Shown here one piece after another: positions 8,637 through 62,231 of a stretch of 64,000 nucleotides of DNA (positions are counted from its first letter, which is position 1; the number at the start of each line of letters is the position of its first letter). The stretch is taken from the NCBI GenBank assembly GCA_951406725.2, contig OX597821.1, forward strand, positions 76,570,001 to 76,634,000. Direction: 5' to 3'. Under the pieces are notes generated by a model, which saw nothing but the letters and a program-made list of their open reading frames with translations, was not told where the DNA came from and did not search any database. The DNA is from Octopus vulgaris (lineage: Eukaryota). The position numbers were made by a program, and so were the translations under genes.

Positions 8637-8786
8637 AAAAAAAAAAAAATGAATAAATAAAAGCTACTTGGAACATTATCAGAAAATATTAGCTGTGGTT
8701 GTTTAGCTTGTAGGGAATACGACCGTACGTAAGGAGTTGGTGACAAATGTCTCCTTTAGTCGCCCCTAACAAAATAAGAAGCCAAA

Positions 8787-9126
8787 TCTCTATATATAAA
8801 ACTTAACTTGTGTATCTGTGTGTGTGTGTATGTGTGTTTGACTTCCCGGCACATCTCCTGGCCAACAAATCGTAGAACCACCAAAAATGGGTCACTTAAA
8901 GTTTAGGCGAATGAAAATTGAACTGCGTTATTTCTGTCCCGAAATTAATTCTCGCAAGTGCAAAAATCGATAATGTGTTTGTTTAGGCCGTATCCCATGC
9001 ATTGAATAGTGAACTTTACTCAGTCAACTGTTTGACGTGAACTGTGTTCACCACGCGTGCCAGCATGTGTAAATTGCATGAAAAATAAAAAAATCAAGAT
9101 ATAAAAACGAATCGCCGTAAACATTG
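8787..9126 (+). mobile_element. Helitron-like 5' end
   Basis: A|TCTCTATATATAAAA followed by a TG tract; same style as the Helitron 5' ends at 63149 and 63545. Confidence 0.55.
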
Positions 9127-9371
9127 TAGAAATTCGGCAAAGAATTTTTGAAGGATTCGGTTGTGTTTTTTCACGTGAGCTAAAATATTGTTAAAATTGT
9201 GTTGAAATTGTTTGTTTAAAAATTGTTTGTTAAATTGTTATACTGAACTTTAACTGGTTTTTGAACCAGGAAAACTTTGTTATTCCCCTCCTTTAAGGAG
9301 GGGAAATAGTGTGAAATATATTGTGTGTTTTGACACAATCTAACAAAAAAAAAAATCCATTTGTGTGAAAA

Positions 9372-10857
9372 TGGAAAAAACAGTTGAACATTTTGCCAAT
9401 GAAGGTTCACCTTCAAATAAAAGAAAATATTGTAGGTTCACCTACAAAGGAAAAAAATATGATGAAAGCAGAAAATTCGGAAACAAGTGTACCAGCAGTT
9501 GAAAACGTGAAAAAAACGGTTAACTTCGCAACCGCAGCCGGCAGAAAAACCGAACATATTTTACCAGAGGACATTGATTACGACAAATACAAGGACAGGT
9601 ACAAAAGGGAGGGGAACAACATAAAAGCCACCCTCCCACAAGAAATAAAAACCAGCACCATGAAGAAAACGGTAATTTTTAAATCTTTTGTAATTAAGGA
9701 AAGAAAAATAGAAAAAATAACAAAGGAGCAGGCCGAAAAGTGTCTCAAACCAATATGGACAGACATTGATTTCGTTACATGGGGTAAGAAGTATGCAACC
9801 ATAATGGTTTACTTTAAAGAGGAGGAACAGGCGAGGAAACACTCGATCAACCCTCTAAAATCAACAGATATAATTCTTCTCCCCTCGTATATGGGAAGAA
9901 GAACAATAAAAATCAAAATAGACGACATACTACCAGAAATTGAGGTAGAAAGCCTCATTCCAGCCCTATTTATGGGACTGAAAGAAAAAATTAATATCAT
10001 AAACATCGTCAGAACCCAGAAGGAGAATTGGAAGGGACAAGCTTTACAGATAATAGTGCAAGCGGCGCCGGAAACGTTAGGAGGTGCCCGAGTTTATTAA
10101 TTTCGACGACGAAATAAACTTGCGGGTGGTGGTCGAAGGGCGTAAGCCCAGATGCTACGGGTGTGGAGAAAAGGGCCACATCCGAGCAGAATGCCCCACC
10201 CGCAAGAAAGAAGAAGAAGAAGCAAGGAAAAAAGCTGAAGAAGAGGAGAGGAGGAAGAAAACGACAAACAGAAGAAGGAAAAAAACAAGAGGGGGATGAC
10301 GATTTCGTGATACCCAGAAAAATGAAAAAAGGAAAAATACGGACCTAAATATACCCAACAATAGCACAAAAAAGAGTAACACCCAGGAGGGGAAACCCAC
10401 CCCACCCAAACACGGTTCCTCCACAAAAGGAAAAAAAGATAAGACCCCCCCAGACCAACACGAATCACCCCCACCCCACAGTACCATACATTACCCTCCC
10501 CTCCAAATGACCTCCCCGTGCTCCTCCCCTACATACTCCCCAAACTCCTCATTCCCCTCCTCCCCATCACCCCCACAAAGCCCCCAAAAGAAAATCACGG
10601 AGTTCCAAGTAGTTTATGCAGCCATCAACAAAGACAACGACAGTGTAAGCAGCGGGATGGGAAACATCCCAACCGCTGAAAAAATACAAACACACAGAAA
10701 AGTTTTAAAAAATGTAGAAATATACAAAATGGATTTGCTAAACTTTAATATTTTAAATGCGCAGTATTCAGGGGACATAAGGGGTCCGCGGCTCGATGTG
10801 GACGAGTCACTTATTAAAGCGGACTTCAACCCCCGACCAACAGGGACACCGACATAA
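9372..10857 (+). pseudogene. Tx1 ORF1 (gag-like, CCHC knuckle), frameshifted
   Basis: ORF pieces 9384-10100, 10084-10299 (CYGCGEKGHIRAEC) and 10507-10857 are collinear with ORF1 of copy 2. Confidence 0.85.
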
Positions 10858-10867
10858 AGGTAAGTAA

Positions 10868-13800
10868 ATGTCTCGTATTTGTGTAGGATGCGTAAATGTG
10901 CGTGGCCTGATGGCGAGCTGGAAGCAAGGGCGCTTCCTAAATGACATCAGGTCACGGGATTTAGATGTTGTTGCCACAGAAACCCGGTTAAAGGGGCCAA
11001 GAGATCTGCTCCCGCTGTTCGACGGTTACGAGAGAATTATCTCTCCGAACCCGTCGGTCGGTGGAAGTGGGGTGTTGGTCCTGGTGAAAAAGAACCGGGT
11101 TTCTGGGAAAAAGTTGATTTTTGCAGATCCAGAAGGTAGGCTGGTCGTCGTTGATTTGACGTTCAGCAGTCGTAAGACAATCAGACTGGTAGCGGTTTAC
11201 GCACCCAATAATAAGGGGAATAGTGAGTATTTTCGGAACCTGGAGAAGTTTCTCAGTACATCGTGCCCTTTAGTAATGTTAGGAGACTACAACACAATCT
11301 GCAATGTGCGGGTAGACTGTGTAGGCTCGCAAACAGACAGGAAAGGAAATGCTTGCTTCCTGGATCTACTAAGACGTTTTGAGCTGGTAGATCCATATAG
11401 ACTGGAACATCCGGACGCTCCATTGTGGACATGGACAAACAGCGACGGATCGTCAAGGTCATACATAGACAGGATTTTAATTAGGAAGGTAGATAGAAAC
11501 CTAGTTAAGAGTCCACAGCTCCACAGTCAGCTACAGTGACCACAAGATGGTCACTTGTAAGCCAGACGTAGATAAGATAAATAGAGGTCCTGGTTACTGG
11601 AAACTTAATACGTCCCTTTTGGCGATTAAGGAGTAGAGTGACAGGATTAGGTTAACGATCCAGAGGGCCATGACCGGCTCCATTATCAATAACAAATGGT
11701 GGTATGCCCTCAAGCGAGCCATAAGATATGAGTCTATTAGATATAGTATAGATCTCGTAGCTAGAGAGGCTAGAAAAGAAACTACTCTAGTTAAGGACCT
11801 AGAGGAAGCAATGCGAACTGGCAACGCGGTTCAGGTGAAGGCCAAGAGACTGGTTTTAAACCAGCACCTCGAAGCCAAACACATGGGTTGTATTGTCAGA
11901 GCTAGACAACGTACAATGGGGAGCGAAGGAATTAATGCCGCGAGATGGGCCCGAGTGGTGGAAGCCCAACGTGGCAACGATGACACAATTCGATCTCTGA
12001 CGAACCAACAAGGTAAGTTGACAGACGAGCCCGAGGAGATGTGTCAAGCTTTTCAGGACCACTTCGCCCAGCTCTTTGGGGGTGGCGGCGGGCCGGATGA
12101 GAGGAGGGACCTTACGGACCTCCTTGACGGACTGCCGCGGCTCTCGGGGCAGGATGCGGAGTGTAGTGAGAAGCCGATCACGCCTGAGGAGGTAATAGAG
12201 GCCATGGCAGACTGCGGTGCGGGTAAGGCGCCGGGGCTGGATGGTCTGCCCTACGAGCTTTATAAAAGTGTGCCGGACTTGTTCGGGGACTTACTGGCGA
12301 ACGTCTACGCGAACTGGCAGCAGAATGGGTTCATACCCAGATCTGTGCGCCGGGGAGTGGTGACACTAGTCAGGAAGGACCAGAGCAAGGGGGACGTCAT
12401 TGATAATTTCAGGCCCATCACTCTGCTTAACGCAGAGTTGAAGATTATGGCCAAAGTGTTATCGAACAGATTGGCGCATGTCGCGAATGGACTGATCTGG
12501 AAAGCGCAAACGTGCGCCGTACCGGGCAGAACCATTCAGGATAATCTCCATCTAATTAGATACACGATAGAGGGAATGGGTAACGATCCCGGCGTGGGAG
12601 GGGCAGTGGTCCATTTAGACCAGTCAAAAGCTTTCGATAGGGTCGACCATCGTTACCTGGTGTCCGTCCTGGCTCAGTTCGGCCTGGGTCTTGGCTTCCT
12701 CAGGTGGATCATACAATTGTATGACAACGTCGACTCGGTAGTTCGGGTGAACGGCTTTATTTCTAAGCCGTTCAAGGTCAAACGCTCGGTCCGTCAGGGA
12801 TGTCCGCTCTCCCCGCTTTTGTATGTAGTGGCTCTCGAGCCGCTGCTGCGAAAACTGAGTGGCATCCCGAGGCAGCCAGGTCGTGGAATGTCGGTTTCGG
12901 CGTACGCGGATGACATCACTATCATCGTGACCGAAATGGACCTCCTACGTAAAGTAGGCAAGGCCATAGAGGTTTACGAGACGGTGACAGGAGCAAAGGT
13001 TAATCGTGAAAAGTCAGTCGGCTTGCAACTCGGCACCTGGAGAGGCAAGTCGATGCCTCCAGACAGCGTCGTGGGACGTTGGACGGAGGGCCCGATTAAG
13101 TTGCTCGGGGTCTGGTTCGGACCAGGCCTCCAAATAGAGAAGAACTGGAGCGAGGTATCGAGCAGGGTGACCGCAGTAGTCAAGACCTGGTCTTGGCGGT
13201 GGTTATCCCTGAAAGGTAGGGCGGAGGTAGCCAATGTGTTCATCGCATCGGTGATCACCTACCGCCTTGCCGTCGTGCCTTGCCCGGATTCGTGGTTGAA
13301 CAAGTTGGAGAGACAGCTCTTTCACTTTTTGTGGAAGGGCTCGAAACCACTTGTGAAACGCTCTATTTGTTGTCAAAAACCGTTACAGGGTGGACTAGGG
13401 ATGCCGTGGCTAATGATGCGCAGAAATGCGCTGAGGCTAAGGCATCTGTGGCTCCATCTGGATGGTGAACGGGTGTGGTCTCCGCTGGCGAAGCAGATGT
13501 TCCCCAGGTTCACCAGTTTCGGTGGACGGGAAGACTGGTATAATCGTAGATCAAAGTTGGGTACATGGTACACGGAGTGCCGTAAGGCACTCCGACTATT
13601 CCGTCGCTCGGGCAATGCCTGCGGCAGTGGTTCTACCGCTGTGTTTTACAGAGGTTTTGTAGAGGCCGGTAACGATGATACGCTAGGGGAAACCCTAGGT
13701 TTCGACGATAATCAGCTGGCCAGTCTGTTCCAACGTACATTCGGGCCGAAGGCACTGGATAATTTCCAGAAGTCTTTGGCTTGGCAGTGTTACCGAGGAG

Positions 13801-14255
13801 CCTTACCTGTTCGAGATAAACTCGCAAGGCATGGTGCCCCAGTCAGCCCGACCTGCGCGAGATGTGGGCGAGATAGGGAAACCGTCTCGCACGCGATCGT
13901 GCAGTGCCCGGAGGTGACAGACATGTGGGTTTATGCCGAACAACTGATGTCAAGTGGAGGAAGAGTACAGCTATCAGCCGAATCCATTGTGAAAATCAGC
14001 CCACCTGATTTCTTAACGAAAGAAGGTAAGAATTGTTTTCTCTCTCTGGTTTCAATTGCGAAACAGGCAGTATGGAAGACGCGGGTGAAAGGGATGCTAA
14101 CAGGCGACTTCATCTCCGGTTCTAGTCTGGTGGAATACTTCAAATTCCACCTGAAAAGACAAATAGAACTGGAGAGGAGGAGCCTGAGTAAGAAAGTGTT
14201 CGATGAAAGGTGGAAGAATGTGGCGAATAAAAGGTCCCTCACAAATGCGAGATAG
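10868..14255 (+). pseudogene. Tx1 ORF2: APE endonuclease + reverse transcriptase + zinc finger; small frameshift near 11525 and a stop near 11633
   Basis: NVRGL, VYAP, GDYN, IDRIL, SDH; PGLDG, FRPITLLN, LDQSKAFDRV, RQGCPLSP, AYADD; CARC...H...C; 861-aa open stretch. Confidence 0.92.
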
Positions 14256-14506
14256 ACCTGGAAAAAAAGTAAACACAAGTCTAAGTGTCGTGGCGGGGAG
14301 CGTGGGGTCCGCGGACCCGCCCCACTGCATTCTGTCAATTTGTAAATGTGTCTTTGTAATTGTAATTGTAATTTCATTCGATTTTATTGTTCAGTCAAAT
14401 TTTTAAATTGATCCCACAAAGCATCTTATTGTATCATCATTCGTGATTGTCATGTTCTTGTCTATGTCGCCCCTAGTGGGTAATAAAGAATTTTGCTTTG
14501 TCTTTT

Positions 14507-17500
14507 GGAGGTCGGTTGTGTGTTGAAAGTAAGCTAAAATATTGTTAATAATTGTGTTTGATTTACCTTGTTGAAAATTTGTTGTTAAAACGTTGTTTTG
14601 AAAATTTGACTGGTTTGTGAACCAGAGAACTTTGTTATTCCCCTCCTTTAAGGAGGGGAAGTATTGTGAAATATATATTTTGTGTGTTAACACAATTTAA
14701 CAAAAAAAAAAAAAAAATACATATATCCATTTTTGTGAAAATGGATAACAAAAAAGTAATTACCAATGAAGGTTCACCTTCGAAGGAAAAGAATGTAGGT
14801 TCACCTACAAAAGGAAAAATTGTAGGTTCACCAAAAGAAAACAAAGCAGGAGAACCTGAAACAATTTCACCGACAATTGAAACGGAAAAAAAAAACGTTC
14901 AACTTTGCCGCCGCAGCAGGCAGGAAGACAGGACATCGACCCAGAAGAAATAGACTTCGAAGAATACAAGGAAATGTATAAGAGGGAGGGAAACAGCATA
15001 AAGGCTACCCTCCCCAAAGAAATCAAAACAAACACGATGAAGAAAATAGTGACTTTTAAATCGTTCCTAATCAAGGAGAAAAAAATAGGAAAAATTACAA
15101 AAGAACAGGCAGAAAAATGCCTAAAACCAATTTGGGCTGACATAGAATACGTTACATGGGGAAGGAAGTATGCCACAATTGTGGCATACTTCAAAGAAGA
15201 AGAAAAAGCGAAGATTCATTCAATCAACCCCATTAAAACGAATGAAATTATTCTTCTCCCCTCCTATATGGGGAGGCGTACATCGAGGATCAAAATAGAA
15301 GAGATCCCGATTGAAATTGAAGTAAAGAGCCTCATCCCAGCCCTATTCATGGGGCTGGAAGGAAAAATAAAAATTATCAACACAACCAAGATTAAGATGG
15401 AGAATTGGAAGGGACAGGCGCTGCAAGTAATAGTGCAGGCAGCGCCAGAGACGTTAGAGGAGGTCCCCGAAAGTATCGACTTCGATGACGACATAAACTT
15501 GCGGGTGGTGGTGGAGGGGCGTAAGCCCAGATGCTACGGGTGTGGCGAAAAGGGCCACATCCGAGCAGAATGCCCCGCCCGCAAGAAGGAGGAAGAAGAA
15601 GAGAAAAACAGAAGAAGAGGAGAGGAGAAAAATATAACAGAAGAAGAGAAAACACAAGACGATTTCGTAACGCCAAGGAAAGTAAAAAAAAGGAAAAACA
15701 CAGACATGAACACACCAAACCCTGGCATAAAAAAGACCAACACCCAGGGAGGGAAACCCACCACCCCCAAACACGGTTCCCCACAAAAAGGAAAAAATAT
15801 AGGACCCCCCCAGACTAACCCGAACCACCCCACAGTACCCAGCATTAGCCTCCCCTCCAAACGTCTTCGCCGTGCTCCTCCCCGGTCTCCCCCTCCTCCC
15901 CATCACCCCCACAAAGGCCACAAAAAAGAGTTACAGAATTTCAAATAGTATATGCTGCAATAAATAAGGACAACGACAGACTTAGAAACACAATTGGAAA
16001 CATACCAAGCGCGGGAAAAATAAAAACCCATAGAAATCTACATGAAAATGTAGGAATTTACAAATTGGACCTTTTGAACTATAACATAATAAACGCACAG
16101 TTTGCAGGGGACATAAGGGGTCCACGACTCGGATTGGACGAGTCACTGATTAAAGCGGACTTCACCCCACGACCAACAGGGACACCATTGTAAGGTAAGT
16201 AAAATGTCTCGTATTTGTGTAGGATGTGTAAATGTGCGTGGCTTGATGGCGAGCTGGAAGCAAGGGCGCTTCCTAAATGACATAAGGTCACGGGATTTAG
16301 ATGTTGTTGCCACAGAAACCCGGTTAAAGGGGCCAAGAGATCTGCTCCCGCTGTTCGACGGTTACGAGAGAATTATCTCTCCGAACCCGTCGGTCGGCGG
16401 AAGTGGGGTGTTGGTCCTGGTGAAAAAGAACCGGGTTTCTGGGAAAAGTTGATTTTTGCAGATCCAGAAGGTAGGCTGGTCGTCGTTGATTTGACGTTCA
16501 GCAGTCGTAAGACAATCAGACTGGTTGCGGTTTACGCACCCAATAATAAGGGGAATAGTGAGTATTTTCGGAATCTTGAGAAGTTTCTGAGTACATCGTG
16601 CCCTTTAGTAATGTTAGGAGACTACAACACAATCTGCAATGTGCGGGTAGACTGTGTAGGCTCGCAAACAGACAGGAAAGGAAATGCTTGCTTCCTGGAT
16701 CTACTAAGACGTTTTGAGCTGGTAGATCCATATAGACTGGAACATCCGGACGCTCCATTGTGGACATGGTCAAACAGCGACGGATCGTCAAGGTCATACA
16801 TAGACAGGATTTTAATTAGGAAGGTAGATAGAAACCTAGTTAAGAATCCACAGCTCCACATAGTCAGCTACAGTGACCACAAGATGGTCACCTGTAAGCT
16901 AGACGTAGATAAGATATATAGAGGTCCTGGTTACTGGAAACTTAATACGTTAGATTAAGGAGTACAGTGACAGGATTAGGTTAATGATCCAGAGGGCCAT
17001 GACCGGCTCCATTATCAATAACAAATGGTGGTATGCCCTCAAGCGAGCCATAAGATACGAGTATTAGGTATAGTATAGATCTCGTAGCTAGAGAGGCTAG
17101 AAAAGAAACTACTCTAGTTAAGGACCTAGGCACTGGATAATTTCCAGAAGTCTTTGGCTTGGCAGTGTTACCGAGGAGCCTTACCTGTTCGAGATAAACT
17201 CGCAAGGCATGGTGCCCCAGTCAGCCCGACCTGCGCGATATGTGGGCGAGACAGGTAAACCGTCTCGCACGCGATCTTCCAGTGCCCGGAGGTGACAGAC
17301 ATGTGGGTTTATGCCGAACAACTGATGTCAAGTGGAGGAAGAGTACAGCTATCAGCCGAATCCATTGTGAAAATTAGCCCACCTGATTTCTTAACGAAAG
17401 AAGGTAAGAATCGTTTTCTCTCTGTGGTTTCAATTGCGAAACAGGCAGTATGGAAGACGAGGGTGAAAGGGATGCTAACAGGCGACTTCATCTCCGGTTC

Positions 17501-17860
17501 TTGTCTGGTGGAATACTTCAAATTCCACCTGAAAAGACAAATAGAACTGGAGAGGAGGAGCCTGAGTAAGAAAGTGTTCGACGAAAGGTGGAAGAATGTG
17601 GCGAATAAAAGGTCCCTCACAAATACGAGATAGGCCGTAAAGGAAAAACACAAGGCTAAGTGTCGTGGCGGGGAGCGTGGGGTCCGTGGACCCGCCCCAC
17701 TGCATTCTGTAATTTTGTAAAACTGTCTATGTAATTGTGTAATCCTTCGATTTTATCTATCATTCAGATTTTTAATTCACCCCAAAAAGCATATAAATGT
17801 ATTTCATCATTCGTGATTGTATCGTAAGTTCTGTGTCGCCCCTAGTGGGTAATAAAGAAA
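14507..17860 (+). mobile_element. Tx1 LINE copy 2 with the RT domain deleted
   Basis: ORF1 (about 14741-16193, frameshifted) and endonuclease (from 16204); junction CCTAG|GCACTGG near 17130 joins the equivalents of copy-1 positions about 11802 and 13752; same 3' tail. Confidence 0.9.
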
Positions 17861-17883
17861 TAGAAATTCGGCAAAGAATTTTT

Positions 17884-18628
17884 GAGGACGTCGGTTGTTA
17901 TTATTTGAACGCGCGTGAAATTGTAAGTTGCAAAAATTGTTGTTGAATTGTTGTACGTTTGTTGATACGGTTTCTTGTTATACTGTTTCTGTTCTGGTGG
18001 CCGTTGTATGTCTGTGTTGAGACAGACAAAAGGATATGGACCACCCCTCCCTAATGGAAGAGTCGGAGGAGGAATGGTTATTCGAGACCTTGTCAGAAGC
18101 ATCGACCTCTGAGGACGAGCTGATCGGCGCTGTGAATATTATGGATATTAAAACCGGGAAAACGTACGCTGGAGCAGCAAAAAAAAAAAAAACCACAGAG
18201 GAAAAGGAGATAAACCTAGAAAAATTGCCAGGTTTTCAAGCATACATAACTAAAGGTGATGAGGTAGAACTACTTCCAGAGAAACGAGAAGACTGGTTTA
18301 TGAAGATAATTATAAAATACCGGACATATGGAAAAGATAAAGTAGAAATAATAAAAATGGAAGATATTGAGGAGGCGCTAAGGAGAGGAGGAAGAAATCA
18401 CATTCATGGCAAGAGGAAACGAGTTCGGAACTATAATAGCGCAATTTGAAAACAAAAATATAGCAAGGAAAATGGCAACGAAGACAATAAAAACTGAAAA
18501 AGTAATATTATTACCATCTTACATGAACCAAAGAATAAATAGAATAAGAGTTGAAGGGATACCCCCCCCCCCCCACATAGAGGGTGAATGGATCGTCGCG
18601 GCGATAATAAAAGATTTGGAAGAACCAA
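17884..18628 (+). mobile_element. 5' part of a third Tx1-related element (ORF1 family of 25518-27145), 3'-truncated
   Basis: LFETLSEASTSEDEL...TYAG...LEKLPGFQ...LLPSY aligns with ORF 25687-27048. Confidence 0.8.
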
Positions 18629-18629
18629 G

Positions 18630-19272
18630 TCATCCGCAACCAAGTAAGCCCCTCTGAAATCAACAACTGGAGATCTCATCAAGGACCAAAGCAAGAAAAT
18701 GGATACATGGGTGGAGTACTACCAGGATCTGTACTCACGGGGTCCACGGCAGCTGAGGCTGCAATCGAGGGTGTCAAGATCTTGCCAGTCATGTATGAAC
18801 TTGGCAGTCTGCCATCTATAGCAGAGCTCACCAAGGCGATTGACTCTCTAGCAAATAACAAGGCTCCGGGAAAAGACGGCATCCCCTTAGATATCATCAA
18901 AACCGGCAAAAAACACCATCCTGCGTCGGCACCTTCATGAGCTTCTGTGTCTGTGCTGGGAAGAGGATACAGTCCCTCAGGATATACGGGATGCAAACAT
19001 TACGCTTTAGAAAAACAAAGGTGACCATGGTGATTGTAACAATTACCATGGAATATCTCTCCTAAGCACTGTTGGAAAGGCCTTTGCTCCCATTATCCTG
19101 TCCAGGCTACAACTGCTTGCTTCTCGAATTTATCCAGAATCGCAGTGTGGCTTTAGAAGAAGCAGATCAATTATTTACATGATATTCTCCATACGCCAAC
19201 TTCAGGAGAGGTCCAGAGAGCAGAAAATGCCGTTATATATGGCCTTCATTGATCGGACAAAGGCCTTTGACT
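18630..19272 (+). mobile_element. RTE-clade LINE reverse transcriptase fragment
   Basis: KAPGKDGIP, KNKGD..DCNNYHGISLLS, PESQCGFR, IFSIRQLQE, LYMAFID..KAFD. Confidence 0.85.
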
Positions 19273-20765
19273 TGGAATGGGAGGTTGTCCCACCCAAGCA
19301 GTGGATTGAAAGTCTTGAGAAGAGGACGGTGGTCCTACGAACCTATTCTAGGTCGCGTGGAGCTATCGCCCTCTTCGACAGGAGCACCATTGAGAAGGAG
19401 TTGGGGGTACCACCTACCAACGATAAAATTTATTTCTCGGGGGAATAAATTTGCAACGGTGTGGTTGCTATTTGATACCCCCGAGGAAGCTAGCAGATTT
19501 GCTAGCGAGCCACTGGAGGGAGAGGAAATTTTGTTCCTCCCCTCGTATTGTGGCAGAAAAGTGAAAGAGCCTGGGTGTGTGGGCTGCCCCCGGGCACGGA
19601 GGCGGAATGGATCGAGAAGACCATCCGGTGAGGCCTGGGGGATAGCGGACCCACACTACTGAGTGTGAAAATGGCTCCCGCGGTCGCTTGGGAGGGGTCA
19701 AAGGCTACTTTGACCCTGTGGACGCCGGTGGCCGTGGGAGAAATGAAATTCCCGGACTTCCTGAGAATGGCTGGGCACAGGTACCCGGTGATACTCGAGG
19801 GTCGCTCCCCCCCCCAAGTGTCACCTGTGCCTGAAGCCCGGACACATCAGGAAGAATTGTCCCGGGGGCCGTGGTGGTGCCCCGGAGCAGAAAGGGGAAA
19901 AGGCGCCCGCCGCCCCCTCATTGGAGGGGGAGACGGTGGAAATCGTGGAGGAGGTTGCCTCCACGAAAAGAAAGAGACAGGCGAGCAACAATGGTTGCCC
20001 GCCAAAGAACGCTCAGGTGGCGGAGGGGGATAGCAATCCCCCGTGTCTGGTGACGGAGTCCCCTGGGTCAGCAGTCTCCCCCAAAAGAAGGAGGAGAAAA
20101 AGGAGAGGTCGGACGACTGACGTTTCTGTGTCGCCGACGGAGCCGCGGGTGGGATGTGTGCCACCCGCGGACAAGGCTCCGCCAGTAGGAAGTGTGCCAC
20201 TGACGGAGAAGTGTGAGGTCCCTTCCTGTGAAGAGGAGATGCTTCTCCTCCTTTACCACAAGGGAGAGGAGGTGGAAAGATTTTTGAATGGCTTGGGTGA
20301 CCGAGAACGCAAGGGCACGGTCGGCTCAAGGAGTCCGTTATGGCCTCCGCGGGTAGCTTCGGAAAAAGTAACGGAAGATATTTTGTCAAGGGTCGCAGAG
20401 ACCTTTGAGAGGAAAGATTTTACTTTTCTCTTTGCAGGCCCCGACTTGTCGTCGCAGAGTTGTCTGCAGGTGGCAAGACAATTTGCTTCGGGGACCTGAC
20501 GAGGAGAATTGTTGAACATTTTTTTGTAAACATGTTGAAGAGGAGGGTTATTGCCTCCTCTAAAATATGTAATTTGAATCATTGTGAACATTTTATTAAA
20601 TGTATTTATTGAAACATTGTTTTAGAGAAGCGATAGTCGGCGGGCGCTTTCGACTTCTCCCATCACCATCTTCATCCACCACCACCATCATCATCCATTA
20701 ATGTCCTTGTCCAGCCCGTAGCTACTATGTGTGCTGCCCTAGTGGCAAATTATATAAAATAAAGT
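19273..20765 (+). mobile_element. 5'-truncated ORF1-only Tx1-derived element (second family), frameshifted
   Basis: ISRGNKFATV, FLPSYCGRK, VILEGR..KCHLCLKPGHIRKNC; stop at 20499, short UTR with hairpin, tail GCCCTAGTGGC...AATAAAG; no ORF2. Confidence 0.7.
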
Positions 20766-21594
20766 AGAAAAAGCCTCTTCATCCTGCTCAAAAAATCGGA
20801 TGTAAAAGGTTCAGAGGATCACCAGAGCCCTGGGCGACTGTCCACAGTCGACGCTATGGCTTGGCTTGGCATGGCAGAAAGAAAGAATTTAAATTATATA
20901 TAGAGAACTATAGTGCGAAGGCAGCATAAAAAACAACCCTTCCTCAGTTGTTGGCAGTTTTACCTACTCCGTGTTGTGAGCATTGCAACGAGATGTCTTC
21001 GTCAAAGCAATTGCTCCCCCAAAGCAAATAAAATAAAATTTGAGATACGTGGAACGTCAAAGCTGCTAACAAAAACAGGACAGTGAAAACATTCGGTAAG
21101 GGCTGTTTAACCCTAACGAGGTGAAGTGGTGACCGCTGGAGAAAAAAAGCTTTGTCAAGAGAGACAAGAATGCGTGTTATAGTTATAAACTGAACGAGAA
21201 GAAAGAGAATTACACTTAGAAATAAAGATCTATAATTATTGAGGACAGAATTTCAGTTAGAAATAGAGAACTATAAATATTGAATTATGCATAAAGTGGT
21301 GGCTTACATTCGGGGCTTCAAATTTCCCTGTAAAATAGAAGATAATCGCAAAATCATCGCACATGTCACCATCGATTACAAACACCGGTGGAAGATAAAA
21401 GTTCCAGAGGACATTCTTGTTCTTTCACTCGTACAAGGATCGTATTATGTTTCGGCTTAAAATAAATTATAGATACAAATATAATGTATAGAAATATATA
21501 AAAACCAGAATAGAAAATAAACGTCTTAGACATATAAAATGAGATATCAAGCTGTAATAAACTTGAAACCTACTAGAATATCATAGATTATAAA

Positions 21595-25517: not shown

Positions 25518-27145
25518 TTTTTTTATTACTCACGAGGGGCTACATAGAGGGGACATAGAACATCAATTACATAAATATGGGTAAATGAATTAATGAAAAT
25601 GATATATGAAAGCGACGCTAACGGCCCCATCCGCTAGCATCACTTACCTGTCCTTTAGTTATTAGTCCCAAACGAATGCTCCTTGTTCAGTTCCTATAAA
25701 AAAATCCATCCATCTCCATCCTTCTCTCAAACGTCTCTTCCAAATCCCTCATGATTTTTTCGACCATTCTCACTTCACTTACTTCCCAATCCCCCCTTTC
25801 ACACATTACCATAAACTCGTCCATTCGTTCTTTTCCAATTACTGCATATCTGATCGGTCCTCTGTCACACCATTGATATTCTTCCATTGTCTTTTTAATC
25901 TTTTCTTTTCCCGTCATACATACAATGTTGGGCCTGGGTTCATTTTTTGTATCTTGGTATTGTGTGTCTTTTCTTTTCTGTTTTCTTGTTGGAGGGGAGC
26001 GGGTGGGTTCACTGTCTGCAGGGAGAGGGTGGGACTCAGAGGGTGTGGTTGGTGTTGGGGTGGATTGAGGTTCCGCACTGTTTACTTTTCCTCTTATTCT
26101 TCTCTTCCTCTTTTTCCGGGCTTCTTCCCATTCTTTTGAAACTTCTTCTGTTGTCTCTTTCTCTTCTGATTTCTGCACTTCTTCCGCCTCTCTTTGTGGT
26201 TCCGCATCCATATTTTTCTCTGGAGGAGGGCAGTTAGCTCTTATGTGGCCTCTCATGCCACACTTATAACAGCGCGGGGCTCTGCCCTCCACCCACACTC
26301 TCATGATGATGTTTCCCATTCTTATATTTTCTGTTAATCTTTCTAGCGTTTTGGTCTCTGCCTGTGCGTTCATATCCAGGGTAGCACCCCCCCAGATTTC
26401 ATAATTTATGGTGGCATGGAGGATGTCTACCTTTTCTTCATTTCCCTTAATTACAGCTGCTGCTATATATTCGCCCTCTAGGTGTGGGGATATTCCCTCC
26501 ACCCTGATTCGCGTGGTTTTCCTGTTTAGGTATGAAGGTAGCAGGTATACCTTCTCCGTTCTTACTGCCTTGGCTGTCATTTTTCTTGCGACGCTCTCGC
26601 TCCTATATTGAACCGTCACTGTCCCGTATTCCATTCCTCTTGTCAAATAAACAATTTCCTCCTCTGTCTGTTTTAGCGCCTCTTCAATAATTTCCATGCT
26701 TACTATTTCAATTCTTTTTCTTCCATTTGCGTACACTCTATATTTGACGGTCCTGCGATCGAACCACTCACCACGCTTTGTTGGAGGTGACAGTTCGACT
26801 TCACCGTCCTCCTCTTTCATAAATTCCTGGAAGCCTGGCAGTTTAACCAGGTCTACCTCTTTTTCTTCCGACTTCTTCTTCGTTACTCCTGCATACGTAT
26901 TTCCAAGCTTCTTATCCATTCTTTTCACTGCTCTTTCTAGTTCCTCCTCAGACGTCGACAATTCCGACAAACTTTCAAACAAATTATTCCTGGCCATCTC
27001 TCCCGTTAGGGAGGAGCAGTCCATTTTTCTCCTTGTCTGTCTCAACACAGACAGACAACAACCAAAATCCTCACACCTAAACGTTCAACAATAATAAATT
27101 CGACAATCAGCAAACAGTCAGCAGCTCACAAAAAAGTCAACCTAG
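25518..27145 (-). mobile_element. ORF1-only non-autonomous Tx1-derived retroelement ('half-Tx1')
   Basis: T/G-rich 5' UTR, single intact ORF1, about 170-nt 3' UTR ending GCCCCTCGTGAGTAATAAAAAAA; no endonuclease or RT. Confidence 0.85.
25687..27024 (-). CDS. Intact gag-like ORF1 protein with CCHC zinc knuckle (445 aa from the first ATG)
   Basis: Uninterrupted ORF; LLPSY, VEGRAPRCYKCGMRGHIRANC; homologous to ORF1 of the Tx1 copies. Confidence 0.85.
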   Translation of the reverse strand: MDCSSLTGEMARNNLFESLSELSTSEEELERAVKRMDKKLGNTYAGVTKKKSEEKEVDLVKLPGFQEFMKEEDGEVELSPPTKRGEWFDRRTVKYRVYANGRKRIEIVSMEIIEEALKQTEEEIVYLTRGMEYGTVTVQYRSESVARKMTAKAVRTEKVYLLPSYLNRKTTRIRVEGISPHLEGEYIAAAVIKGNEEKVDILHATINYEIWGGATLDMNAQAETKTLERLTENIRMGNIIMRVWVEGRAPRCYKCGMRGHIRANCPPPEKNMDAEPQREAEEVQKSEEKETTEEVSKEWEEARKKRKRRIRGKVNSAEPQSTPTPTTPSESHPLPADSEPTRSPPTRKQKRKDTQYQDTKNEPRPNIVCMTGKEKIKKTMEEYQWCDRGPIRYAVIGKERMDEFMVMCERGDWEVSEVRMVEKIMRDLEETFERRMEMDGFFYRN

Positions 27146-27785
27146 ATTTTCAAGTGACGTTTAAATAAGAAATGAAATTCATTGAAATGTTAACTTTAGT
27201 TAATCATGCAAAAAAAGCCAATTGGAATATTCCACTCTGTAATGATATATACTACAATAACAAAGAAATTATTTTAGATTTGTGCATAAGTATTCATTGG
27301 ATCTAATCCAGATAGTATTTTCAAAAAGCTTTACAGTTTTATATTTTAAAAATTTAATTTTAAAGTTTAAGAAAATCATAAGACGCTAAATATTTATGCT
27401 TACAACATACTAAAATGTCTGTAATTTTATTTAATTATATGTCTTTATTTCTATTACTAGCGTATAGTATGCTACTCGATTCCTTGATGCAAAGCCTATA
27501 CGATTTAGTATATTTGTTCTATGGTGTTGATTCGTTAATTATACTCAATGTTAGACTGTATGAGGTGGTTAATGTATGATGCTAAAGTCATGGAATTTTT
27601 TTATATAGGGGTGAATAAATGAACTCTTGTGTCCCATATATCTAATGTGTATACATGTATATACATGTATGTCTAGATGTATATATATAGATGTACATGT
27701 AATATGTACACATATATATATATGCATACATATATACACCCATACACACATACACACACACACACACACACATACATACATAAGT

Positions 27786-34548: not shown

Positions 34549-34844
34549 AATCTTACTTCCCCCCTTCCAACCTCTCTTCCTCCTCTTTATCTCCTTGCCT
34601 CTCTAACCGTCCACCTGTCTTTAACGCGTTATATTTCTCTTGCCTCTCAGCGCCATCAATCTCTCTCCCCCTCTCTCTCTCCCCCCTCTCTCTCTCTCTC
34701 TCTTTCTCTTACTTCCTCTTACTTCCTCCTCTTTGCCGCTTAGCCTCTCACTTCAACTATACTTCCTCTGCTTAACAAGTTTTATTTCTCTCTTTTTACC
34801 TCTTCCATTCAACTAAGTGTGAAACACACCACAGCAGTGAGCAG

Positions 34845-36130
34845 CCGGAAACGTTAGCACACCGGGCGAAATGCTTGGCGCTATTTCGTCTGTTCTAACG
34901 TTCTGAGTTCAAATTCCACCGAGGTTGACTTTGCCTTTCAGTTACGCACTGGGGGTCGATATAATCGACTTAATTCCTTTGTCTGTCCTTGTTTGTCCCC
35001 TCTGTGTTTAGCCCCTTGTGGGTAGTAAAGAAATAGCTATTTCGTCTGTTTTAACGTTCTTAGTTCAAATTCCACCGAGGTCGACTTTGCCTTTCATCCT
35101 TTCGAGGTCGATTAAATAAATACCAGTTACGCACTGGGGGTCAATATAATCGACTTAATTCCTTTGTCTGTCCTTGTTTGTCCCCTCTGTGTTTAGTCCC
35201 TTGTAGGTTGTAAAGAAATAGCTATTTCGTCTGTTTTAACGTTCTTAGTTCAAATTCCACCGAGGTCGACTTTGCCTTTCATCCTTTCGAGGTCGATTAA
35301 ATAAATACCAGTTACGCACTGGGGGTCAATATAATCGACTTAATTCCTTTGTATGTCCTTGTTTGTCCCCTCTGTGTTTAGCCCCTTGTGGGTAGTAAAG
35401 AAGTAGCTATTTCGTCTGTTTTAACGTTCTGAGTTCAAATTCCACCGAGATCGACTTTGCCTTTCATCCTTTCGAGGTCGATTAAATAAATACCAATTAC
35501 GCACTGGGGTTGATATAATCGACTTAATTCCTTTGTATGTCCTTGTCTGTCCCCTCTGTGTTTAGCCCCTTGTGGGTAGTAAAGAAATAGCTATTTCGTT
35601 GTTTTAACGTTCTGAGTTCAAATTCCACCGAGATCGACTTTGCCTTTCATCCTTTCGAGGTCGATTAAGTAAATACCAGTTACGCACTGGGGGTTGATAT
35701 AATCGACTTAATTCCTTTGTCTGTCCTTGTTTGTCCCCTCTGTGTTTAGCCCCTTGTGGGTAGTAAAGAAGTAGCTATTTCGTCTGTTTTAACGTTCTGA
35801 GTTCAAATTCCACCGAGATCGACTTTGCCTTTCATCTTTTCGAGGTCGATTAAGTAAATACCAGTTACTCGCCTTAATCGACTTAATTCCTTTGTATGTC
35901 CTTGTTTGTCCCCTCTGTGTTTAGCCCCTTGTGGGTAGTAAAGAAATAGCTATTTCGTCTGTTTTAACGTTCTTAGTTCAAATTCTACCGAGGTCGACTT
36001 TGCCTTTCATCCTTTCGGGGTCGATAAATTAAGTACCATTTACGCACTGGGGTCGATGTAATCGAATTAATCCCTTTGTCTGTTCTTGTTTGTCCCCTCT
36101 ATGTTTAGCCCCCTGTGGGCAATAAAGAAA
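34845..36130 (+). repeat. Tandem array of about 7 SINE family B units (period about 184 bp)
   Basis: Units restart with CTATTTCGT at about 34880, 35037, 35222, 35407, 35591, 35774 and 35950. Confidence 0.9.
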
Positions 36131-36491
36131 TATTATTGATGATGATGATGATGATGATGATAAATATATACAAACTATAAAAAAATATATACAGTACTGT
36201 TGTACTTCGCGGATTTTCACCTATCGCAGCGGTTGTGGGGTACGTAACACCCACGATAGTGGTGAGGTTACTGTAGTATCTTCTATCTTTGACTTGTTTC
36301 AATCGACTGCGGCCATGCTGGAGCACTACCTTGAATTTTTGATCGAATGGATTGATCCCTAGTACTTATTTCTATCTTACGCCTGGTACTTATTCTTTGT
36401 CGAACAGGGACGTAACCACACTAACTGGTTGTCAACCAGTAGTGGGGAACAAACGCAGACACAGACACACACACTCACATGCATACATGCA

Positions 36492-59884: not shown

Positions 59885-62231
59885 GATCTCTTTCGGCACC
59901 ATCTTTGATCTTTTTCGGCACACACTTTGATCTCTGTCGACACCCCCTTTGATATCTGTCGACACCCCTCTTTGATCTCTGTCGGCACCCCCTTTGATCT
60001 CTGTCGGCACCCCTCTTTGATCTCTGTCGGCACCCCTCTTTGATCTATGTCGGCATCCACTTTGATCTCTTTCGGTACCTCCTTTGATCTCTGTCGGCAC
60101 CCCTCTTTGATCCCTTTCGGCAACCCTTTGGTCTCTCTCGGCACCCCTCTTTGATCTCTGTCGGCACCCCTCTTTGATCTCTGTCGGAACCCCCTTTGAT
60201 CTCTGTCGGCACCCTCTTTGATCTCTGTCGGCACTCCCTTTGATCTCTGTCGGCACCCCATTGATCTTTGTCGGCACCCTCTTTGATCCTTGTCGGCACC
60301 CTTCTTTGATCTCTATCGGCACCCCTCTTTGATATCTTTCGGCACCCCTCTTTGATCTCTGTCGACACCCCATTTGATCTCTGTCGGCACCCCCTTTGAT
60401 CTCTGTGCATCCCTCTTTGATCTCTGTCGACACCCCCTTTGATCTCTGTCGGCACCCTTTTTGATCTCTGTCGGCACCCTTTTTGATCTCTGTCGGCACC
60501 CCTCTTTGATCTCTGTCGGCACTCTCTTTGGTCTCTGTTGGCACCCCCTTTGGTGTCTGTCGGCACCCCTCTTTGATCTCTGTCGGCACCCCTCTTTGAT
60601 CTCTGTCGGCACCTCTCTTTGATTTCTGTCGGCACCCCCATTGATCTCTGTCGATACCCTCTTTGATCTCTGTCGGCACCCTCTTTTATCTCTGTCGATA
60701 CCCCTCTTTGATCTCTTTCGGCACCCTCTTTGATCTCTGTCGGCACCTCTCTTTGATTTCTGTCGGCACCCCCATTGATCTCTGTCGGTACCCTCTTTGA
60801 TCTCTGTCGGCACCCTCTTTGATCTCTGTCGGCACCCTCTTTGATCTCTGTCGGCACCCCTTTGATCTCTGTCAGCACCCCTTTGATCTCTGTGCATCCC
60901 CTTTGATCTCTGTCGGCACCTCTCTTTGATCTCTGTCGGCACCCCTCTTTGATCTCTGTCGGCACCCCTCTTTGATCTCTGTCGGCACCCCCTTTGATCT
61001 CTGTCAGCACCCCTTTGATCTCTGTGCATCCTCTTTGATCTCTGTCGGCACCCCATTTGATCTCTGTCGGCACCCCTCTTTGATCTCTGTCGGCACCCCT
61101 CTTTGATCTCTGTCGGCACCCCTCTTTGATCTCTGTCGGCAACTTCTTTGATTCCTGTCGGCACCCCTCTTTGATTCCTGTCGGTACCCCTCTTTGATCT
61201 CTGTCGGTACCCCTCTTTGATCTCTGTCGGCACACTCTTTGATTGCTGTCGGCACCCCTCTTTGATCTCTGTCGGCACCCCTTTGATCTCTGTCGGCACT
61301 CCCTTTGATCTCTGTGCATCCCTCCTTGATCTCTGTCGGCACCCCTCTTTGATCTCTGTCGGCACCCCTCTTTGATCTCTGTCGGCATCCCTTTGATCTC
61401 TGTCGGCACCCCTCTTTGATCTCTGTCGGCACCCCCTTTGATCTCTGTCGGCACCCCTCTTTGATCTCTGTCGGCACCCCTCTTTGATCTCTGTCGGCAC
61501 CTTCTTTGATTCCTGTCGGCACCCCTCTTTGATCTCTGTCGGTACCCCTCTTTGATCTCTGTCGGCACCCTCTTTGATCTCTGTCGGCACCCCTCTTTGA
61601 TCTCTGTCGGCACCCCCTTTGATCTCTGTCGGCACTCCCTTTGATCTCTGTGCATCCCTCTTTGATCTCTGTCGGCACCCCTCTTTGATCTCTGTCGGCA
61701 CCCCTCTTTGATCTCTGTCGGCACCCCTTTGATCTCTGTCGGCACCCCTCTTTGATCTCTGTCGGCACCCCCTTTGATCTCTGTCGGCACCCCTCTTTGA
61801 TCTATGTCGGCACCCCTCTTTGATCTCTGTCGGCACCCTCTTTGGTCTCTGTCGGCACCCCCTTTGATCTCTGTCGGCACCCCTTTGCTCTCTGTCGGCA
61901 CCTCTCTTTGATTTCTGTCGGCACCCCAATTGATCTCTGTCGGCACCCTCTTTGATCTCTGTCGGCATCCCTCTTTGATCTCTGTCGGCACCCCTTTTTG
62001 ATCTCTGTCGGTACCCCTCTTTGATCTCTGTCGGCACCCTCTTTTGTCTCCGTAGGTACCCGTCTTTGATATCTGTCGGCACCCCCTTTGATCTCTGTCG
62101 GTACCCCTCTTTGATCTTAGTCGGCACCCTCTTTTATCTCTGTCAATACCCCTCTTTGATCTGTCGGTACCCTCTTTGATCTCTGTCGGCATCCCTCTTT
62201 GATCTCTGTCGGCACCCCTCTTTGATCTCTG
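59885..62231. repeat. Minisatellite, 21-23 bp unit TTTGATCTCTGTCGGCACCCCTC, roughly 100 copies
   Basis: Direct inspection. Confidence 0.97.

Follow-up and report, generated by a model that had tools for sequence, protein, structure and literature searches.

Head-to-tail Tx1-like LINEs sharing one target site in the genome of Octopus vulgaris

How did two long interspersed nuclear elements (LINEs) come to lie head to tail within one target-site duplication, exactly against the 5' edge of a third element? The question is raised by a stretch of 64,000 nucleotides (nt) from Octopus vulgaris (assembly GCA_951406725.2, contig OX597821.1, positions 76,570,001 to 76,634,000, forward strand; hereafter the window), animal DNA in which decayed mobile elements and simple repeats are abundant. 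The exact repeat TAGAAATTCGGCAAAGAATTTTT occurs at 9127-9149 and 17861-17883 and has no other match in the window on either strand; the match extends to 25 nt with the GA that opens both the first and the third element (el1 and el3), and its chance expectation in the window is about 1e-8. Between the two copies lie el1 (5.3 kb) and then el2 (3.35 kb), head to tail and adjoining the head of el3. This bracketing had been claimed in an earlier reading of the letters alone (the sequence-only reading), and it is exact at both sites. The stack probably arose, in our judgement, by sequential insertion at one site. The features on which the argument turns are the following:

9127..9149, + strand: left copy of the target-site duplication, 21-23 bp, an exact match to 17861-17883
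9139..9148, + strand: AAAGAATTTT, found also at 14485 and 17873; likely the left half of a short duplication that el1 itself made
9150..14490, + strand: el1, a near full-length LINE of L1/Tx1 type, with its 5' untranslated region (UTR) to 9370, the ATG of open reading frame (ORF) 1 at 9371 and ORF2 at 10868-14255
14485..14494, + strand: AAAGAATTTT at the middle junction, made up of the last 6 nt of the el1 tail and TTTT, and equal to the end of the 23-mer
14495..14506, + strand: 12 nt, GCTTTGTCTTTT, either extra 5' nucleotides of el2 or a relic of a donor site, with no other match
14507..17860, + strand: el2, of the same family as el1, with another type of 5'UTR, ORF1 and 3'UTR and an ORF2 98% identical to that of el1
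17861..17883, + strand: right copy of the target-site duplication, its opening TA / AGAAAT being compatible with the family tail AAAGAAATA as well

The heads at 9150, 14507 and 17884 each consist of a run of four or five T, then GAAGGAT, GGAGG or GAGGACG, respectively, and then TCGGTTG, in agreement with the earlier claim that all three elements begin after a T-run with G...TCGGTTG. They are similar over their first ~45 nt. TCGGTTG by itself is undiagnostic, with 12 matches in the window.

Insertion history of the stack

AAAGAATTTT is present at all three junctions, at 9139, 14485 and 17873. AAAGAA occurs at 179 places in the window and has TTTT behind it at four of them; three are these junctions, leaving 1/176 elsewhere. 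The sequence-only reading had taken the spacer at 14491-14506 to be unlike the local flank. This does not hold, since 10 nt of the middle junction (14485-14494) repeat the end of the 23-mer, as sequential insertion predicts; the premise of a foreign spacer is weakened accordingly, and only 12 nt are without a match. These 12 nt have no second match in the window at up to one mismatch (25 places at two mismatches), and a nearby template for them was rejected on that count. A duplicate of the target lies in both tandem junctions: the whole 23-mer between el2 and el3, and 10 nt (4 of them independent) followed by the 12 nt between el1 and el2. That two insertions should coincide exactly in position goes far beyond what chance would give.

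What can be seen directly are the repeats, the junctions and the anatomy of the elements, and they suggest the following course. The third element would have landed first. Next, target-primed reverse transcription would have inserted el2, with a duplication of 21-23 bp and with the 12 nt as extra nucleotides at its 5' joint. Finally, el1 would have entered the surviving left copy of the duplication: the tail of its RNA would have paired with AAAGAA of the target, and its 5' end would have been joined at the T-run, creating a duplication of ~10 bp. In the window, short interspersed element (SINE)-like units carry the family tail, which in five of the seven has AAAGAAATA as its end; the end of el2 fits this, overlapping the target by TA, and the tail of el1 stops 3 nt short of it, at AAAGAA, the same six letters that are present in the target. 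Pairing of tail and target at AAAGAA would explain the shortfall. Because each insertion would leave an intact upstream flank and a tail-like, T-ended target before the previous head, stacking on the 5' side would follow.

Passages of PMC2666801 report extra 5' nucleotides in ~40% and 3' microhomology in ~80% of copies of zebrafish ZfL2-2. Re-insertion that leaves a duplication between the members of a tandem is known from R1, jockey and P (10.1101/158386) and from SINEU-3, which is mobilised by Tx1 (PMC4494074).

The assembled array was also compared with public sequencing runs, 16 of the 24 listed containing part of 8700-18300 and the best holding 0.53 of its words. Four runs were compared over 14300-21100: the contig runs X1, X2 and X5 and the raw-read run X18. 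The contig results rest on 24 listed of ~11,970 pieces, on 15 listed joints and on 24 listed loose ends; the remaining 59 joints and 1,317 loose ends lie outside what they cover. The el1 3'UTR matches a contig of depth 549 at 190/190 letters, up to 14489, and the el2 head matches a contig of depth 198 from 14511, whose 27 upstream letters differ from the window. A piece covering 17806-18046 or 17806-18072 crosses the el2/el3 junction in X1, X2 and X5; its 18 other letters and 7 gaps are shared by the three runs. As X1 contains 20756-20931 without any difference, this diverged piece more likely represents a tail-to-head junction at another locus than the allele of the window. The el1/el2 junction with other outer flanks, which would indicate a donor, was not seen among the 24 listed pieces, 15 joints and 24 loose ends; those runs do contain the diverged tail-to-head junction of el2/el3 type, probably a second one. 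Raw reads of X18 over 14300-21100 amounted to 40 low-complexity reads only. This run carries the same species label as X1, has near-zero reads even on very abundant repeats, and is probably from another organism. Contigs from metagenomes, genomes and viruses, scanned for motifs or for proteins, gave no match.

Several observations weigh against sequential insertion. Six of the 10 nt of AAAGAATTTT are el1's own tail, so that only TTTT (4 nt) is independent, and this in a T-rich setting. The T-run has five T in the left copy and four in the middle copy, and the two duplications differ in length (~10 versus 21-23). The middle junction, AAAGAATTTTGCTTTGTCTTTT, spans 22 nt when counted from AAAGAA; in length and in its terminal TTTT it resembles the 22-23 bp duplication, as a duplication from a donor site would. 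None of the 24 listed pieces spans 14482-14512, where el1 meets el2, and an empty or el2-only allele was not seen among the listed pieces, joints and loose ends. In favour of sequential insertion, el2 looks older than el1, going by its letters: at six of the seven ORF2 sites listed for the contig comparison (a list selected for el2 differences) el1 agrees with the contigs, while the letter of el2 is private to it. This fits the proposed order, but an older el2 is also expected if the pair formed elsewhere.

The latter possibility is the core of the sequence-only proposal that a dimer of ~8.7 kb moved as one read-through RNA. Here el1 and el2 would have stood in tandem at a donor locus, an RNA running from the el1 promoter to the el2 tail would have been inserted whole, and the middle 16-22 nt would be the donor's duplication. 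A single 23-mer does bracket el1 and el2 together, the 22 nt of the junction end in TTTT like the outer duplication, and the more complete ORF2 of el1 could have acted in cis. On the other hand, the donor target must share AAAGAATTTT by chance (4 independent nt; ~0.6-0.8% by window counts), an untruncated reverse transcript of 8.7-10.7 kb is required, and the high-depth contigs of the el1 tail and el2 head in X1 stop short of crossing the junction. The two 22-mers are identical at 12/22 positions, a level reached by 8% of the window 22-mers ending in TTTT; the agreement is not significant and gives no indication of a strict target or consensus common to both. The proposal retains one real argument, its 22-nt, TTTT-ended junction, and its premise of a foreign spacer is weakened by the 10-nt local repeat. 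The sequence evidence is close to even between sequential insertion and the dimer. We place sequential insertion ahead, as a route that is common and documented. The dimer requires three things, a tandem at a donor locus, read-through and a copy of 8.7-10.7 kb free of truncation, and we regard it as unlikely. Like the gradings that follow, this is a judgement and not a computed value. The locus would matter more if a dimer of 9-11 kb had indeed been copied whole.

A single insertion could also have combined two templates, with el2 RNA copied, 16 nt added or picked up, and synthesis then jumping to an el1 RNA, packaged together with it, at the tail. The R2 reverse transcriptase (RT) reportedly jumps between templates end to end. 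Such a jump would put one duplication around two subfamily members and make a donor tandem unnecessary; the ORF2 mosaic described below shows exchange between these same subfamilies, and template jumping is the likely source of extra 5' nucleotides according to passages of PMC2666801. It leaves the TTTT match to the local target unexplained, however, and one event predicts equal ages, whereas el2 seems to bear more private changes, unless its template had already decayed. We think this decidedly unlikely. That the array is in part a repeat misassembly we consider very unlikely. No listed contig crosses 14482-14512, the sole listed piece over 17861-17883 is the one with 18 other letters and 7 gaps, the best run holds little more than half of the words, and several frameshifts of the elements fall in base runs. 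Yet a misjoin would not yield a precise 23-bp duplication with the ends of both elements whole, el1 and el2 are ~20% different outside ORF2, and the letter-for-letter presence of 20756-20931 in X1 indicates that the neighbourhood is real; contigs, moreover, lose rare variants, and few pieces are listed.

Highly improbable, finally, is that the 23-mer or its T-rich end is a conserved 5' terminus of the elements, or a host repeat serving as the true target (compare Tx1L in Tx1D). The likeness of the three heads over ~45 nt and the 27 window-unlike letters upstream of the el2 head in the depth-198 contig could be read in this way, as could the left flank at 8786-9126. This flank begins TCTCTATATATAAAA, continues with a GT run and presumably resembles a non-autonomous Helitron; it may be a host repeat that supplied the target. 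Against this reading, el2 lacks the 23-mer and el4, a solitary relative listed below, shows nothing similar. Simple repeats apart, the left flank occurs only once in the window. A small nuclear RNA target, with the T-run as Sm site, was sought among Rfam matches over 7000-28000 at E up to 5 and not found; nor was a transfer RNA or other RNA gene found at the insertion site, which carries neither an RNA gene nor a microsatellite target.

The sequence-only reading went further and held that insertion is targeted to the T-run/5' junctions of relatives. The stacking at one spot is non-random, but neither of two ORF1-only relatives, el4 and el3b, sits at a relative's 5' end in the window, and reuse of a duplicated site suffices. 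Aiming at heads is unnecessary because the left copy, which has its upstream flank intact and stops where the resident's head starts, gives 5'-side stacking by itself; at this locus the two cannot be told apart. The conserved T-run/G head and the second tail-to-head junction in the contigs keep the idea alive. In its full form, a LINE lineage would home on the T-run/G heads of relatives, including distant ORF1-only ones, its stacks could move as dimers, and an ORF2 cassette would be passed among ORF1/UTR types; we hold this to be possible but doubtful. If the family does aim at the heads of its relatives, the safe-haven rule would be set by the element and not by a host gene.

Class of the elements and exchange of ORF2

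The ORF2 of these elements matches the Pfam families Exo_endo_phos (E 4e-9), RVT_1 (5e-29) and zf-RVT (3e-10), corresponding in el1 to APE endonuclease, RT and zf-RVT. Among 11 PDB matches of the RT, from a library in which no other clades are represented, human L1 ORF2p (E ~1e-48) stands before R2 (~1e-23). ORF1, including that of el1, has one CCHC knuckle, at 20.6 bits against a Pfam cut-off of 20.8, with no match to Transposase_22 or RRM; its Atlas look-alikes are CCHC and ZCCHC3-RBD-like clusters (0.89-0.93). By ORF2 domains and RT affinity the elements are L1-group retrotransposons that lack long terminal repeats (non-LTR). The ORF2 domains, L1 ORF2p as the best solved relative and the CCHC-type ORF1 suggest that they are probably Tx1-type, as the sequence-only reading had it; passages of PMC5203782 tie type I ORF1 (RRM and/or CCHC), not Transposase_22, to Tx1. 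The best 120 database matches of ORF2 include a single named one, a hypothetical protein of Argonauta hians (58%), and no named Tx1 reference. In O. vulgaris, L1-Tx1 has been recently active, with 13 families and 421 insertions (PMC13282606, in part). Of the three elements, el1 and el2 belong to one family; el3 is not a further copy of it but a distant relative represented by its head and part of ORF1.

The 3' tail of el1 ends GCCCCTAGTGGGTAATAAAGAA, and its reading frames are disrupted by four or more frameshifts and by one stop codon in frame. The second element can be aligned with it end to end except for a deletion of 1,949 nt (el1 11801-13749), whose joint lies near 17128 with a 2-nt AG microhomology.

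Identity between el1 and el2 is 83% in the 5'UTR, 79% in ORF1 and 84% in the 3'UTR, but 97.9% and 97.6% in the surviving parts of ORF2 (10868-14255 versus 16204-17633); the level of identity changes close to where ORF2 starts and stops. Third positions differ at 84/175 in one segment of ORF1 and at 7/216, 4/84 and 4/166 in ORF2. An ORF2 identity of 98% beside 79-84% elsewhere is not explicable by selection alone, which argues that sequence has been exchanged and that, on this pair, the ORF2 cassette was swapped between subfamilies. Summed contig depth, which is not copy number, is tens of times higher for ORF2 than for el2 ORF1 in X1, X2 and X5, with the X1 peak in the endonuclease part; this fits one ORF2 lineage combined with several ORF1 types. 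Local gene conversion as the cause of the ORF2 identity was considered and found unsupported by the sole site shared by el1 and el2 (16811), at which some X5 contigs have the same letter. Mouse L1 families exchange sequence as well (Tf and Gf are recombinant; PMC3600994, in part), with ORF1, ORF2 and 3'UTR segments passing between families. The octopus case, a single pair, differs in that the two borders coincide with the start and the stop of ORF2, sequence difference being 2% between them and 16-21% beyond. If the clean swap is family-wide, template switching between LINE subfamilies would be directly countable in octopus assemblies.

Relatives in the window and known systems

Downstream of el2, and further along the window, lie the following:

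17884..18640, + strand: el3, what is left of a distant relative: head and 5' part of ORF1, with 64% nucleotide identity to el4 and 36-39% amino-acid identity to the el1/el2 ORF1 over short stretches
18645..19275, resuming at 20762, + strand: RTE-like LINE fragment, continuous in frame and through a 19275 to 20762 joint in contigs of X1, X2 and X5
19276..20761, + strand: el3b, a high-copy ORF1-only relative with the family tail, inside the RTE-like fragment, with no clear duplication
25519..27172, - strand: el4, a solitary ORF1-only relative with the family tail, a 465-aa open frame and a CCHC knuckle, with no clear duplication
34820..36132, + strand: seven SINE-like tandem units whose tail matches the LINE tail, ending AAAGAAATA in five of the seven and AAAGAAGTA in two

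The el3 remnant, its head and ~750 nt of ORF1, is cut by the fragment that we take, from its translated motifs, to belong to the RTE clade, and no 3' end of el3 was found in the window. Contigs of all three contig runs link 19275 (or a position within a few bases) to 20762. TAGAAA at 20765 was rejected as a third duplication closing el3, being RTE-like sequence that continues from 19275. No relative adjoins el4, and its ORF1 frame has one database relative only, an O. vulgaris protein, with a short match. Some LINEs elsewhere survive as ORF1-only 'half-L1' elements, HAL1; with their ORF1 and LINE tail, el4 and el3b resemble these by description and not by sequence. The SINE-like units are ~184 nt each, head to tail, and all except the first start at one internal point; the array is likely, by its tails, a partner SINE expanded in place.

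Among known systems, the crocodilian SINEU-3 tandems of Tx1-Mar resemble the octopus stack in tandems that sandwich a duplication and, probably, in their Tx1 machinery and in a partner SINE that shares the tail; passages of PMC4494074 read them as sequential insertions. SINEU-3, however, has a defined target, Mariner-N4_AMi, over hundreds of copies, whereas the octopus offers one junction with part of a duplication and 12 other nt. The same source sets the criterion for a defined Tx1 target at >20% of flanks; in the window el1 and el2 share one site, and el4 and el3b lie elsewhere. Xenopus Tx1L in Tx1D, and Keno, Kibi and Koshi, have an L1-group ORF2 with APE and a CCHC-type ORF1, as here, and a site preference that the octopus elements may share (PMC4494074, in the same passages), but the octopus site is without an RNA gene or microsatellite, and two relatives are in unrelated places. 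The Drosophila dimers of R1, jockey, DMRT1B and P (10.1101/158386, in part) are likewise head to tail, formed by re-insertion at one site and marked by a target duplicate at the joint; the non-LTR ones are mostly tail-to-internal through 5' truncation, while the octopus heads are whole and members of three subfamilies or families are stacked. Read as reuse of one site, the octopus stack is one more case of this known route to LINE tandems. No octopus Tx1 stack or LINE dimer moved whole was found in the literature searched, which excluded Repbase, subscription journals and bioRxiv supplements.

Two further stretches of the window look like repeats of other kinds. Behind the RTE-like fragment, 20881-21480 is a high-copy stretch that contains an imperfect 32-nt repeat (copies at 20881 and 21244) as well as a decayed reading frame; it appears to be another element. 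At 59885-62231 there is a GC-rich tandem repeat with a unit of ~67 nt or multiples thereof, whose minus strand holds open frames of 857 and 606 aa.

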